Position numbers and translations under genes: made by a program. From IMG/VR virus record IMGVR_UViG_2778261588_000006, positions 1 through 20,988 of that record: a stretch of 20,988 nucleotides of DNA. One strand, 5' to 3'. This DNA is from a virus (taxonomy: Duplodnaviria; Heunggongvirae; Uroviricota; Caudoviricetes). This document shows positions 7,233-18,532 of the stretch, in pieces. The notes below the pieces were generated by a model. The model saw only the letters and a list, made by a program, of their open reading frames with translations, was not told where the DNA came from and did not search any database. Each line of letters starts with the position of its first letter. Within the stretch, counting starts at the first letter, position 1.

Positions 7233-7337
7233 TTACTGAAATGGGCCGCAGTTGTGAGAGTTAGTGCGTCGGGCGAAAGCCATTTTTCTAAGCTCTTTCA
7301 GGGCTTCTTCCAGTTCCTCGTAAGTTGGTTTTTTCAT
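7233..7337 (-). CDS. Tiny hypothetical ORF (34 aa)
   Basis: ATGA overlap with upstream small ORF; AAAGG upstream; weak. Confidence 0.2.
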   Translation of the reverse strand: MKKPTYEELEEALKELRKMAFARRTNSHNCGPFQ

Positions 7338-7504
7338 GGCTGTACCTTTTGATTCAGAAACTCAACAAGACGATCCAGCAAGCTCTTAACGCGAGGTTGT
7401 TTAAAGTCTGCTCCGGTTAAAATGTTTTTTCGTGAATGCTGTACCGATAAAATCGGGTTGAAAGGGCGAACCGATGCCGCCCCTGCAATAGCGAACTGTT
7501 GCAT
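7334..7504 (-). CDS. CIII-like small regulatory protein (56 aa)
   Basis: AGGAG SD 6 nt upstream; N-terminus MQQFAIAG and SLLDRLVEFLNQ helix resemble lambda CIII (MQYAIAG...RLIDILNQ) as recalled. Confidence 0.4.
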   Translation of the reverse strand: MQQFAIAGAASVRPFNPILSVQHSRKNILTGADFKQPRVKSLLDRLVEFLNQKVQP

Positions 7505-7965: not shown

Positions 7966-7994
7966 GATAAAAAATCGCCCTCACATTGGAGGGC
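7966..7994 (-). terminator. Rho-independent terminator (minus strand): GCCCTC-CAATGT-GAGGGC then GATTTTTTAT
   Basis: 6-bp GC stem, 6-nt loop and U-run read on the minus strand, between two early-left genes. Confidence 0.5.
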
Positions 7995-8089
7995 AAAGAA
8001 GATTTCCAATAATCAGAACAAGTCGGCTCCTGTTTAGTTACGAGCGACATTGCTCCGTGTATTCACTCGTTGGAATGAATACACAGTGC

Positions 8090-8302
8090 TTATTCGCGAG
8101 CTTTGAGCATGGCATCAGCAATAAAGTAGGCATCATCTGCTAATTCTTTGTACTGTGGTGAATTCTGTCCACCACCAAAGGAATGTCCGTCCCATCTGCG
8201 CACTATTGCTGCCATAGCCTTAGCAGCGAAGTAATCACGTAATGTCGCATCACTTGCCATTTCTGGGCGTTTGATATCTGCTTCATAAAACTCGCACATC
8301 AT
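8090..8302 (-). CDS. Hypothetical phage protein (70 aa)
   Basis: ATGA overlap with upstream gene stop; GGAGGTGA SD. Confidence 0.5.
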   Translation of the reverse strand: MMCEFYEADIKRPEMASDATLRDYFAAKAMAAIVRRWDGHSFGGGQNSPQYKELADDAYFIADAMLKARE

Positions 8303-9025: not shown

Positions 9026-9331
9026 TCAATCGTAATAAGCTGGAATTGATTTTCCGCGTTGCTTCTGGCGGCCTGAGCAAGTCACACCCATTTCACTGCG
9101 TGGCTTGCGGTAGTAAATACGATTCTGTTTACTCTCGACTTCTTCTGCCTTCTTGCAGCGAAGGCTTCCGAGTGATGCTGCTTTATCTGCTCTGACGCAA
9201 CCAGAGAGCTTTAGCGCAATTTTTCGCGCCAGTCGCTGCTCTTGCATTGCCTGTTCACGTTGAGCCTGTCTGCGTGCTCTGCGGCGATTTCTGGCGTTAT
9301 CGTCAGCCAGATATGTAATGACTACTGTCAT
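9026..9331 (-). CDS. N: N-like transcription antiterminator with arginine-rich motif
   Basis: 101-aa basic protein with N-terminal ARM (NARNRRRARRQAQREQ) like lambda/P22 N; GGAGGT SD; located ~315 nt downstream of a boxA-boxB nutL. Confidence 0.6.
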   Translation of the reverse strand: MTVVITYLADDNARNRRRARRQAQREQAMQEQRLARKIALKLSGCVRADKAASLGSLRCKKAEEVESKQNRIYYRKPRSEMGVTCSGRQKQRGKSIPAYYD

Positions 9332-9645
9332 GTTGACCTCCGATGAAACAACTTTGGAATTTTTTTTATTACAAAGTGGTTTCCTTCCCCGCCAATTAGA
9401 CGGGGATGGAAGAGCATTTATGAGCCTTTATGGACTCTGCTCGATCAGTTCTATTTAATTAATCTCTCAATTGAATGTAAGTATTCACATAAATCCTCCT
9501 ACCTCTTGTGCAGCTTTCTTGAATATGGTGGCGGCTGCATAACGCCTATGGAATTGACTTTGGCGGTGACGCGCCGGGTGCTTATCTTCCGGTTGCCGTC
9601 GTGCAGCTGCACTTCACGTCACCCCAAAGCCAACTACTCTTTGGT

Positions 9646-10292: not shown

Positions 10293-11009
10293 TCAAACCA
10301 GTCTGAGTTTTGTCTCAATTGCAACGCCTATAATCTTGCAGTTTCCATTGATTGGCACGAGAGGCCATGCAGGATTAAGTCCCTTGAGGTATTTATTTCC
10401 GCCGTCGATTATCAGCTTCTTGAATGTTGCTTCGTTAGAGTCAGAAAGTTTTGCTATGACCAAGCTGCCGTTGATCGCCTCCCTTCCGGTATCGAAAAGA
10501 ACGAATGTTCCCTCTGGAATGCTTAACCCAACCGGTGCCGTCATTGAATCACCTTCCACTTTAAGCCAGAACGCATTACCTTGAATATGCGCGTCAGACT
10601 CAAGCCAAACATCTATGTCTTTAATGGTGTATGGTTCGCATGCTTCACACCACGAGCCAGCCTGGATACTGCTTAACACCGGATACCTCTTTCCTGCTCT
10701 GTATTCCCCTGCATACCTTACGTTGGCATCGCTCTTAAGGCTTTCTGCCTGTTCTGCAACCTTGGCAGCAATTGACTGGCTAAAATCAGCAATTGAGACT
10801 TGCAACAATCGTGCAAAACCAGATGCAACCTCAACGTTTAGCGCGTTTCTGCCATTAAGATAATGCCCTACCGCTCCTTGGGTGATACCCAGTTCATCAG
10901 CGATTGAGTATTGGGTTATTCCCAATTCTTTCTTTTTTGACTCATACAAAGCCTTAAGCCGCTTAGCGTCTTCGAGCTGTTCTGTCGTCAGTGATTTTTT
11001 ATTTTCCAT
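10293..11009 (-). CDS. cI: CI-type prophage repressor (HTH + S24 LexA-like peptidase domain)
   Basis: N-terminal HTH (LGITQYSIADELGITQGAVGHYLNG), EGDSM serine motif and downstream Lys; divergent from cro across operator dyads; no SD, consistent with leaderless PRM-type mRNA. Confidence 0.9.
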   Translation of the reverse strand: MENKKSLTTEQLEDAKRLKALYESKKKELGITQYSIADELGITQGAVGHYLNGRNALNVEVASGFARLLQVSIADFSQSIAAKVAEQAESLKSDANVRYAGEYRAGKRYPVLSSIQAGSWCEACEPYTIKDIDVWLESDAHIQGNAFWLKVEGDSMTAPVGLSIPEGTFVLFDTGREAINGSLVIAKLSDSNEATFKKLIIDGGNKYLKGLNPAWPLVPINGNCKIIGVAIETKLRLV

Positions 11010-12376: not shown

Positions 12377-13157
12377 AGTATTTTACCTGCCGAAGAGTGA
12401 ACCTGTTGAACAGGAGCGAAGAGTGGCTGATATCGATGATGGTTACACCAGATTCGCTAACGAGCTGCTGGAAGCTATCGCAAGTGCCGATTTAACCGCT
12501 CGCCAGTTGAAAGTTATGCTGGCCTACGTCCGGAAAACATATGGATTCAATAAGAAAACAGATCGAATAGCCGATGAGCAAATTGCTCAGTTAACAGGAC
12601 TGTCAAGGCAGAATGTTAACAAGGCTAAAAAAGAACTGATTTCAATGAATTGCCTGTTTATGGATGGAAATCAAATCGGTGTAAATAGGGAGGTATCTGC
12701 GTGGCAATTCAGCAAGTGTCTCCAAGTTAGCAACTTTGTCTCGAAGTTAGAGACACACAAAAGACATTCTTTAAAGACAAAAGAAAATATTAATAAACCC
12801 CCTATATCCCCCAAAAAAGTTTCTCAGAAGTTCGACCCGCTAGAAACAGAGTTGCCTGATTGGTTATCAGCAGAAATATGGTTGTCGTGGGTTACCTATC
12901 GCAAGGAGATAGGTAAGTCGATCAAGTCTAAGCAAAGTGTCACTCAGGCTATCAACGTTCTAAGCAGAAGTCTGGAGAAGGGATATACACCTGAAGAAAT
13001 TATAAACCAGAGCATCGCCAGTGGTTGGCAGGGTATTTTTGAGCCCAAGACTCCAAAGGGGAAATCTCAACCGAGGCCGCAGCATCGAGCTATGCAGGAA
13101 AACTTTGCCACCAAAGATTACGGACAAACTGAAATGCCTTCATGGGCGCAGGAGTGA
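12363..13157 (+). CDS. O: Replication initiator O-like protein
   Basis: N-terminal domain (RRVADIDDGYTRFANELLEA...LKVMLAYVRKTYGFNK) parallels lambda O; GGAGG SD at 6 nt; iteron-like repeats inside the gene. Confidence 0.7.
   Translation: MSLAEVFYLPKSEPVEQERRVADIDDGYTRFANELLEAIASADLTARQLKVMLAYVRKTYGFNKKTDRIADEQIAQLTGLSRQNVNKAKKELISMNCLFMDGNQIGVNREVSAWQFSKCLQVSNFVSKLETHKRHSLKTKENINKPPISPKKVSQKFDPLETELPDWLSAEIWLSWVTYRKEIGKSIKSKQSVTQAINVLSRSLEKGYTPEEIINQSIASGWQGIFEPKTPKGKSQPRPQHRAMQENFATKDYGQTEMPSWAQE
12719..12800. other. Putative replication origin inside O: iteron-like repeats TGTCTC(C/G)AAGTTAG at 12719 and 12739, then A-rich ACACAAAAGACA...AAAGAAAATATTAATAAA
   Basis: Second repeat is a dyad (TGTCTC...GAGACA); adjacent A/T-rich block resembles the lambda ori arrangement. 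Confidence 0.45.
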
Positions 13158-14292: not shown

Positions 14293-14319
14293 CCATCTAC
14301 ATCACTGAGCTAATAACAG

Positions 14320-14346
14320 GGGCTATTTACACAGTAGCCCTTTTTT
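14320..14346 (+). terminator. Rho-independent terminator (GGGCTA-TTTACACAG-TAGCCC-TTTTTT), tR2-like position
   Basis: 6-bp stem, 9-nt loop and T6 run on the plus strand between the replication and nin modules. Confidence 0.6.
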
Positions 14347-18040: not shown

Positions 18041-18090
18041 GCGCGCCTGACGAGTCCATGAGGGACGAAACGCATTAGCGTCGCGCGGAG
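18041..18090 (+). ncRNA. Hammerhead self-cleaving ribozyme motif (type I topology)
   Basis: Core CUGACGA 18047-18053; stem II GUCC 18054-57 / GGAC 18063-66 (loop AUGAG, G10.1-C11.1 pair); GAA 18067-69; stem III ACGC 18070-73 / GCGU 18078-81 (loop AUUA, A15.1-U16.1 pair); cleavage triplet GUC ending at C 18082; stem I CGCGC 18042-46 / GCGCG 18083-87. Every invariant core position is satisfied. Confidence 0.6.
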
Positions 18091-18532
18091 TATCCCCAGC
18101 CGGGGAATAACTGGATACCAGGGGAGACAACCCTAAGCGCATTTACGAGTGTGTTTAGGGCGTGGGTCGGCAATGACTCCCTGTGCAGCCGACATCTGGC
18201 CCGGCAACATACAGTGCTCTTTCCGTTGTGCTGAATTAAGCGAATACCGGAAGCAGAACCGGATCACCAAATGCGTACAGGCGTCATCGCCGCCCAGCAA
18301 CAGCACAACCCAAACTGAGCCGTAGCCACTGGCTATCCTGAATTCATCAGTGATAGTTATGCTGCGGCCTTCTACACATGACCTTCGTGAAAGCGGGTGG
18401 CAAGAAGTTGCGCTAACAACCTCCTGCCGTTTTGCCCGTGCATATCGGTCACGAACAAATCTGATTACTAAACACAGTAGCCTGGATTTGTTCTATCAGT
18501 AATCGACCTTATTCCTAATTAAATAGAGCAAA

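Follow-up and report, generated by a model that had tools for sequence, protein, structure and literature searches.

Host RNase III acts on hairpins of the lambda pL transcript at sib, in the retroregulation of int, and in the N leader, in the control of N translation. Both of these sites control an adjacent protein gene and release no sRNA, and they are compared here by description only. To our knowledge, decades of work on RNase III in lambda (N leader, sib) have reported no site at the locus described below, and a search of the open-access literature on lambda tL2a, tL1 and RNase III found no mapping of this region. In the early polycistronic mRNA of phage T7, RNase III recognizes the intercistronic hairpin R1.1, whose minimal form, uR1.1, is a 34-nt RNA with an 11-bp helix, the stated minimum, between the cut and the tetraloop (Pertzev and Nicholson 2006, PMC1540722). 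The canonical distal box of this substrate is a U-A pair followed by U.G, and the UG requirement is stringent, with a change to GU or AU costing 30-50-fold; the proximal box consists of pb1 G-C, pb2 A-U or U-A, pb3 A-U and pb4 A-U or U-A, does not accept a G/C pair at pb2, and weakens RNase III binding in vitro when substituted at pb1-3 (PMC1540722). In the published numbering, pb2 is pair 9:30 and the middle box comprises 12:27 and 13:26, and cleavage yields a 6-nt 5' product and a 28-nt stem-loop product (PMC1540722), which makes pairs 10 and 9, counted from the 5' cut, the distal box and puts the 3' cut 13 nt below the tetraloop. In the Qin prophage, RNase III excises the long form of the DicF sRNA from an operon transcript and RNase E the short form (Faubladier 1990; PMC10448788), and RNase III processing affects the upstream part of that transcript (PMC10448788).

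LPR1/PreS is an Hfq-dependent sRNA encoded between ea10 and ral of lambda (Silverman et al. 2024, bioRxiv 10.1101/2024.10.31.621285). According to the accessible part of this preprint, the 3' end of PreS is formed by terminator tL2a, its expression is limited to the lytic cycle and absent in lysogens, and the sRNA up-regulates dnaN and supports phage DNA replication. Bands of ~88 and ~68 nt are described there, with no ~120-nt species reported in the same text. The +1 nucleotide (PreS begins GAGCAATGTCGC...) is that of the cloning, in vitro transcription and deletion primers; this 5' end rests on primer design and on the ~88-nt northern band, and the accessible text contains no 5' mapping at nucleotide resolution. 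PreS cloned from +1, without the hairpin described below, was fully active in reporter assays, and copies of the sRNA were reported at 92% identity or above only. The accessible part of the preprint names neither a promoter nor a nuclease for the 5' end, leaving the excision of PreS from the pL transcript unexplained; the present proposal is that host RNase III may accomplish it at an R1.1-like hairpin.

The locus described here lies in a 20,988-nt stretch of viral DNA, referred to in its entirety as the window, which is the early region of a lambdoid phage. Read from right to left, its minus strand carries genes for a CI-like repressor and an N-like antiterminator, small ORFs, a 70-aa ORF, ea10, cIII and an Erf-type recombinase, and its plus strand carries O/P-like replication genes, ren, the nin region, Q and lysis genes (Table 1). 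The original prediction, which called attention to a 9-bp inverted repeat just 3' of an early-left gene, was correct about the gene, since the minus-strand gene order around the repeat and the surrounding layout are those of a lambdoid early region. The segment 7969-8089 is nearly identical to lambda 33,925-34,045, between ea10 and ral, and to phage Bas106, and both of its flanks differ among the three phages; the hairpin formed by the repeat, together with the following 88 nt, is almost identical to lambda 33,924-34,042. These 88 nt directly 3' of the hairpin differ from lambda PreS by a single mismatch, and with the N-like gene, cIII, ea10 and the CI-like repressor around them they identify the PreS locus of the window. 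PreS +1 corresponds to G8055, the last paired base of the hairpin. The hairpin itself lies outside the sRNA as its authors define it, remains in place in their full lpr1 deletion and is not discussed in the accessible part of their text. The terminator scan places an intrinsic terminator, stem 7996-7975, ~60 nt downstream of the hairpin. The terminator-to-hairpin block is present in 385 records of the phage collection; among the matches listed, its edges fall mostly at ~8089, and at ~7967-7969 where the downstream gene differs. Elsewhere on the minus strand, the N-like gene is immediately preceded by a very stable hairpin at 9373-9412 (CAUCCCCGUCUAAUUGGCGGGGAAGG), with UGCUCUU before it, which probably represents the phage's nutL boxA/boxB.

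Table 1. Features of the PreS locus and its surroundings in the window, in minus-strand order
Feature	Position	Strand	Remarks
CI-like repressor	10293-11009	-	
N-like antiterminator	9026-9331	-	
70-aa ORF (PHROG 2201)	8090-8302	-	Unknown function; last codon and stop lie within the conserved boundary motif
Lower stem, 5' strand	8087-8097	-	Contains UAA 8092-8090; belongs to boundary motif CGAATAAGCAC
Full RNA hairpin on the leftward transcript	8055-8086	-	14 contiguous pairs; CAAC loop 8072-8069
Perfect 9-bp inverted repeat	8057-8084	.	GTGTATTCA / TGAATACAC
Predicted 5'-arm partner cut, G8084 / U8083	8083-8084	-	Would excise a 28-nt stem-loop if cleavage is double
Hairpin apex, CAUUC-CAAC-GAGUG	8066-8075	-	RNase III distal-box match (UA, UG) at U8074-A8067 and U8075.G8066
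Predicted RNase III 3'-arm cut, G8056 / G8055	8055-8056	-	13 nt 3' of the loop; predicted from R1.1 geometry
PreS/LPR1 sRNA, 88 nt	7968-8055	-	One base different from lambda, in the terminator loop
Lower stem, 3' strand	8044-8054	-	PreS nt 2-12 (AGCAAUGUCGC)
PreS seed region	8003-8020	-	UGUUCUGAUUAUUGGAAA; the 18 nt removed in the seed deletion of the preprint
Intrinsic terminator, tL2a equivalent	7969-7996	-	GC-rich stem 7996-7975, U-run 7974-7969; forms the PreS 3' end
ea10 homologue, 122 aa	7580-7948	-	Next gene downstream of the terminator
cIII	7334-7504	-	

The arms of the repeat, at 8057-8065 and 8076-8084, are 10 nt apart in the window sequence. The repeat had been assigned to 8059-8086; it is present and perfect, and these coordinates were shifted by +2. 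It does lie right after the stop of the 8090-8302 gene, 5 nt beyond the TAA, and the remark that neither strand carries an adjacent U-run is borne out. As a bare repeat it is not beyond chance, since about 1.1 are expected per window: a first-order Markov null of the same length gave a mean of 1.14 perfect 9-bp repeats, with at least one in 60% of simulated windows, and the window holds two with a loop of 3-12 nt, at 8057-8084 and 12892-12916. The latter (TTACCTATC, 7-nt loop) lies within the O-like replication gene and may be iteron- or origin-related. On the leftward transcript the repeat becomes part of a longer helix that runs from the outermost pair C8086-G8055 to C8073-G8068 at the loop (5' arm 8086-8073, 3' arm 8068-8055) and includes two U.G pairs, U8085.G8056 and U8075.G8066. 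The 10-nt loop described previously is accurate as the spacing of the DNA arms but not as the RNA loop, which is 4 nt, the larger figure having come from counting Watson-Crick pairs alone. Every surrounding gene, and the early-left operon, has the minus strand as its sense strand; the RNA of this strand folds at -20.2 kcal/mol (z = -6.7, with none of 200 shuffles equally stable), against only -14.6 kcal/mol for the plus strand. Among 20,950 overlapping 40-nt segments of the window on both strands, the hairpin is the most stable, at -21.7 kcal/mol (mean -5.7, sd 3.2), so that the fold-energy check suggested along with the repeat gives a value beyond chance.

Below the 14-bp stem, a weaker lower stem can be drawn in which G8089/C8088 pair with C8052/G8053 and GCGA 8097-8094 pairs with UCGC 8047-8044. 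In both the window and lambda, the resulting helix begins with the 14-bp stem and an A/A mismatch; that of the window continues with 2 bp, a 4x4 internal loop and 4 bp, and that of lambda, in which the partner of these PreS nucleotides is a different upstream sequence, ACACUGC, continues with 3 bp, a 1x1 mismatch and 3 bp. Hairpin and lower stem would together amount to about two helical turns; an R1.1-type signal has a helix of about that length (~22 bp), in which irregularities are allowed. The lower stem is irregular, context-dependent and weakly conserved, and it competes with the fold of PreS itself: in the predicted folds of the mature sRNA, PreS nt 2-12 refold into the sRNA's own 5' helix. 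A G is present at PreS +8 in 99 of the 100 loci with lambda-type upstream context, a count that is confounded by relatedness, and this would be consistent with a C-G pair in the lower stem.

Conservation was assessed by scanning two collections with the first 19 nt of PreS (GAGCAATNTCGCTCGTAAC), a query that does not include the hairpin. A hairpin was found at this position in all 147 of the phage and prophage loci with enough flanking sequence (147/147), and eight chance matches in unrelated bacteria were without it. The scan of bacterial genome contigs returned mostly lambda contamination and random matches, which served as negative controls; L134, L141, L154 and other bacterial contig loci (Shewanella, Pseudomonas, Bacillus relatives) are on low-coverage contigs of ~48.5 kb or short contigs identical to lambda, which look like contamination of the assemblies with lambda DNA. 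The position is occupied by four unrelated hairpin sequence types: type A (CUGUGUAUUCAUUC-CAAC-GAGUGAAUACACG), found in this window and in lambda; type B (CUAUAGCAGAUU-UACG-AGUCUGCUAUGU), found in phage L and APC_JM3.2; type C (CUUAAUGCGGAUUCUGUGAUUCCGCAUUGC); and type D (CCUAAUGACCAUU-UUAAU-AGUGGUCAUUGU). The hairpin types are found in free combination with PreS bodies of the lambda type, of the P22 type and of intermediate form. MAFFT puts all four in register, and in that alignment 94.5% of the cells are paired, the figures being 69% for shuffled controls and 27-52% with a slid partner column, and 8 of the 14 pairs exhibit changes on both sides. The covariation score is 0.68 versus 0.22, a value reached by none of 500 shuffles, and RNAalifold independently arrives at the same helix. 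Every one of the 23 distinct variants folds better on the leftward-transcript strand, by a mean of 4.9 kcal/mol; the variants carry from zero to three U.G pairs in the sense strand, and only one has any G.U pair in its antisense fold. This strand asymmetry arises because U.G pairs become C/A mismatches on the other strand. Given the greater sense-strand stability of all variants and the one-strand U.G pairs, selection is on the RNA of the leftward transcript and not on a DNA dyad.

The hairpin is real and functional, a conserved, covarying RNA that delimits the 5' end of PreS. Absence of conservation and of nearby transcript ends had been named as the outcome that would speak against the original prediction, and it is contradicted on both counts, by conservation with covariation (147/147 loci, 8 of 14 pairs) and by a PreS 5' end at the hairpin base, as set by the preprint primers. 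The hairpin-plus-PreS unit occurs between at least 15 upstream and at least 12 downstream ORF families, and copies of hairpin A are followed by PreS-like sequence in 146 of 147 cases. At least seven unrelated families of upstream ORFs take both their final codon (Glu) and their stop from the boundary motif CGAAUAAGCAC, located immediately before the hairpin. The upstream stop codon always lies 3-5 nt before the stem, with the mosaic junction inside the end of the coding sequence. One viral contig (L164, at ~4272 on the minus strand) carries hairpin A and GGAGCAAU with cIII directly following in place of the remainder of PreS, a natural hairpin-only variant. P22-like Salmonella phages carry a diverged PreS-like RNA (GAGCAAUAUCGCUCGUAACCAAGCGAGGACGACGACUCGUUCUGGUUAAUCG ... 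terminator), found in phage L (L007) at ~745-870 and in L006, L012, L015, L055 and L111, in which the 5' 19 nt are shared, the middle stem covaries and the seed is altered; it lies upstream of a gene-17-like ORF in phage L and upstream of cIII in UPF_BP1.

Several other candidates were considered for this locus and set aside. Rfam yielded no match at gathering score in the window and, near the site, chance-level matches only; the resemblance to RyhB and other Rfam-style matches is similarity to the terminator only. RalA of the Rac prophage lies on the opposite strand beside ralR, and KilS of the same prophage has no similarity to PreS, so that neither was retained as a homologue. KilS (7406-7503, minus strand, of L158, the E. 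coli K-12 Rac prophage) occupies an analogous place in the early-left operon, upstream of kilR, with no similarity to the hairpin either. The EHEC/EPEC sRNAs HnrS and Pas belong to other loci. A small ORF from the AUG at 8049 (29 aa, annotated as hypothetical in Bas106) was also rejected, its GGAG being 2 nt from the AUG and the P22-type copies having AUA. A promoter of PreS's own was likewise not supported: no sigma-70-like site was found upstream of 8055, the four hairpin types share no -10 element by eye, and the absence of PreS in lysogens was counted against such a promoter.

The determinants described for R1.1 were compared with the hairpin position by position. The T7 sequence gives the R1.1 apex as GGUCAUUC-GCAA-GAGUGGCC, and the five pairs nearest the loop (C-G, U-A, U.G, A-U and C-G) are identical to those of the window hairpin, UUCAUUC-CAAC-GAGUGAA, with UA/UG in the same register. 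The distal box is present in type A (Table 1), and type C has U/U in place of U.G. Across 13 aligned variants, the apex pairs are U-A in 13, U.G in 12 and A-U in 13, the U always being on the 5' arm, and these pairs are near-fixed while the mid-stem drifts. The UA/UG apex is not diagnostic alone, since it is shared by an ordinary terminator at 14318-14342; this plus-strand element (GGGGCUAUU-UACAC-AGUAGCCCC, then a U-run) is a tR2-like intrinsic terminator that follows the ren-like gene. Above the predicted 5' cut, type A has the 11 bp of the minimal substrate, from U8083-A8058 to C8073-G8068, as does type C, and types B and D have 10 pairs. The proximal box of type A reads A-U, U-A, G-C, U-A, of which two of four are canonical and pb2 and pb4 are acceptable, and by these in vitro rules type A is sub-optimal; type B has three canonical pairs of four, and types C and D have all four. 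Substrates cut in vivo have the two positions between the staggered cuts paired, usually as G-C or C-G. In type A both positions are paired (G8084-C8057 and U8085.G8056), in keeping with this rule, and types B-D have one of the two mismatched, as in internal-loop substrates that are cut once. PreS +1, as taken from primer design, falls at the predicted bond, 13 nt 3' of the loop in type A and 12 nt in types B and D, the range over the four types being 12-13 nt. Six T7 RNase III sites, at what we take to be their coordinates, lie 12-13 nt 3' of their apical loops, and this structurally consistent placement supports the coordinates used.

The hairpin thus resembles R1.1 in being an intercistronic structure in the early polycistronic mRNA of a phage, in its apex, in the 11 bp from cut to tetraloop, in the distance of 13 nt from the loop to the 3' cut (here an RNA end) and in its weaker, interrupted lower stem. 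It differs in that the proximal box of type A is half canonical, in that the downstream product is a trans-acting sRNA and not an mRNA, and in that E. coli RNA polymerase, subject to N antitermination, synthesises the transcript, with a presumed dependence on RNase III. By analogy with R1.1, the hairpin may be a processing signal for host RNase III in the pL transcript, a reading to which we assign a probability of about 0.55; that it is an RNA processing or stability element at the PreS boundary, by whatever enzyme, is highly likely. Because the hairpin ends where PreS begins and resembles an RNase III site, it is probably the signal that releases PreS from the long early mRNA, and the "RNA processing site" that had been offered as one alternative for the repeat is favoured by the conservation, the covariation and the PreS end at the hairpin base.

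Under the RNase III reading, the hairpin and the weaker lower stem, the latter pairing the end of the upstream ORF with PreS nt 1-12, would fold as the RNA emerges. RNase III would bind this helix of about two turns, read the UA/UG distal box at the apex and cleave the G8056/G8055 bond in the 3' arm, 13 nt below the loop, which is where U-A/U.G in the R1.1 register predicts the 3' cut and where PreS +1 lies. The cut would yield the 5'-monophosphate end of the 88-nt Hfq-dependent PreS, whose 3' end would be the tL2a-like terminator. The upstream mRNA would keep the hairpin as a 3' cap, or would lose the 28-nt stem-loop if the 5' arm were cut as well. A later cleavage, by analogy that of RNase E, would give the 68-nt form, PreS-S. 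We regard DicF, again by analogy, as a direct precedent for such processing: it is likewise an sRNA inside a prophage early operon without a promoter of its own, and its long and short forms resemble the 88- and 68-nt forms of PreS. The two RNAs have no sequence similarity, and the 3' end of DicF can also come from processing. A further elaboration, which we consider rather improbable, is that the hairpin could be a translation-gated switch for sRNA release and not a passive cut site. With the stop codon inside the lower stem, a terminating ribosome would melt the RNase III substrate, the release of PreS, and hence the boost to host DnaN, would be coupled to translation of the upstream early gene, and the four hairpin types, being interchangeable, would represent recombining versions of a single portable cassette for sRNA release. 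If this were true, PreS output would be tied to the level of upstream gene translation.

Because types A to D each deviate from the R1.1 determinants and because RNase III dependence is something that we infer, the main rival is one in which the same hairpin acts without RNase III. RNase E or another single-strand endonuclease would cut beside it, and the hairpin would block 3'-5' exonucleases, stabilise the upstream mRNA and set the PreS boundary passively. This account is the strongest of the competitors, if an unlikely one. It explains conservation, strand specificity and position equally well, and RNase E makes most operon-derived sRNAs of enterobacteria, which we count in its favour. The retention of the hairpin in L164 despite the deletion of PreS suggests a role tied to the upstream message. 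Upstream ORFs of many different kinds have their stops 3-5 nt before the stem. Intercistronic stabilising hairpins such as REP and that of malE-malF are similar stable stem-loops just after a stop, and the present hairpin could protect its upstream message from 3' exonucleases in the same manner. Those elements, however, lack both a conserved motif at the apex and a defined RNA 5' end at the base, and unlike them hairpin A travels with a downstream sRNA in nearly every case. The predicted folds leave no single-stranded linker for such an enzyme, with only 0-1 nt between the hairpin and the 5' helix of PreS. RNase E prefers A/U-rich sites, and the junction ACACG/GAGCAA is unlike these. Nor does a passive block explain why the apex pairs U-A, U.G and A-U stay fixed in a drifting stem. 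It is appreciably less likely that the hairpin modulates the sRNA as part of a longer precursor or isoform of PreS, in which it would cap the 5' end against decay or sequester PreS nt 1-12 until its removal, or that it couples events to translation termination in the upstream ORF. PreS nt 1-12 can indeed pair either upstream of the hairpin or with the PreS interior, and the stop codon is within the lower stem; against this, the accessible part of the preprint describes the ~88- and ~68-nt species only, and the hairpin-less PreS is fully active there (Silverman et al. 2024).

Functions at the level of DNA or of transcription are very improbable by comparison. In many phages the conservation of the block stops where the outer edge of the hairpin lies, and homology therefore breaks there, as might be expected of an operator-like dyad, a cruciform or a recombination hotspot at the mosaic junction. 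The pairing nevertheless needs U.G pairs that exist on one strand, compensatory changes preserve pairing and not sequence, and no promoter-like site is nearby. An operator would be expected to have both half-sites conserved in sequence and a symmetry as good on one strand as on the other. A sequence-specific DNA site is unlikely since four unrelated sequences occupy the position, and the protein-binding dyad suggested in the original prediction is disfavoured on the same grounds of strand-asymmetric pairing, unrelated sequences and compensatory change. A transcription signal, whether an intrinsic or Rho-dependent terminator, a pause hairpin or a nut-like site, has an equally small claim. The hairpin is stable and lies in a terminator-rich operon, but its stem is A/U-rich, it is followed by GGAGCAAUG, and none of the four types has a U-run, GAGCAAU always being next; the terminator scan finds no terminator at the hairpin, the real one being at 7996-7975, which agrees with the earlier opinion that the repeat looks unlike a terminator. 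PreS nt 10-18 (CGCUCGUAA) are one base from what we take to be lambda boxA, CGCUCUUAA, and such 9-mers with one mismatch occur at chance level (7 found versus 4.5 expected). A nut site consists of boxA followed by a short boxB hairpin with a purine-rich loop of 5-6 nt; here the order is reversed, and a 14-bp A/U-rich stem with a 4-nt loop is unlike boxB. A chance repeat without function can practically be dismissed: a perfect 9-bp repeat is expected about once per window, but the top-ranked fold, the presence in 147/147 loci and the covariation are not accounted for in this way.

The proposal of RNase III cleavage names an exact bond and exact nucleotides, and would give PreS biogenesis a precise and cheaply testable mechanism. 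The hairpin-plus-PreS unit behaves as an autonomous non-coding cassette of lambdoid phages, including Stx-converting phages, and the PreS family extends to the diverged P22-like versions that a search at 92% identity or above would miss. The hairpin also provides a simple rule for the annotation of sRNA boundaries in prophages.

A separate structured element was observed on the plus strand between the Q-like and holin genes. At 18042-18088 it contains a hammerhead-ribozyme-like sequence with a complete catalytic core (CUGACGAG ... CGAAAC ... GUC), scoring 24.7 bits against Rfam Hammerhead_1, below the gathering score of 34, with E = 0.0014 in a 701-nt search. Homologues are present at 95% identity in an Enterobacter T7-like phage and at 80% in phages of Pectobacterium and Dickeya; the core is kept in these, N7 varies and stem III covaries, and the homologue in Pectobacterium phage Pappous is closely followed by an annotated tRNA-Met gene. 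The same conserved element of ~170 nt includes a 13-bp hairpin at 18131-18160, plus strand (CCCUAAGCGCAUU-UACG-AGUGUGUUUAGGG), with three plus-strand G.U pairs, in which four pairs covary in the Pectobacterium homologues and the apex AUU-UACG-AGU is fixed. Because this apex is identical to that of the type B hairpin upstream of PreS, the 18131-18160 hairpin may be another RNase III-type site.
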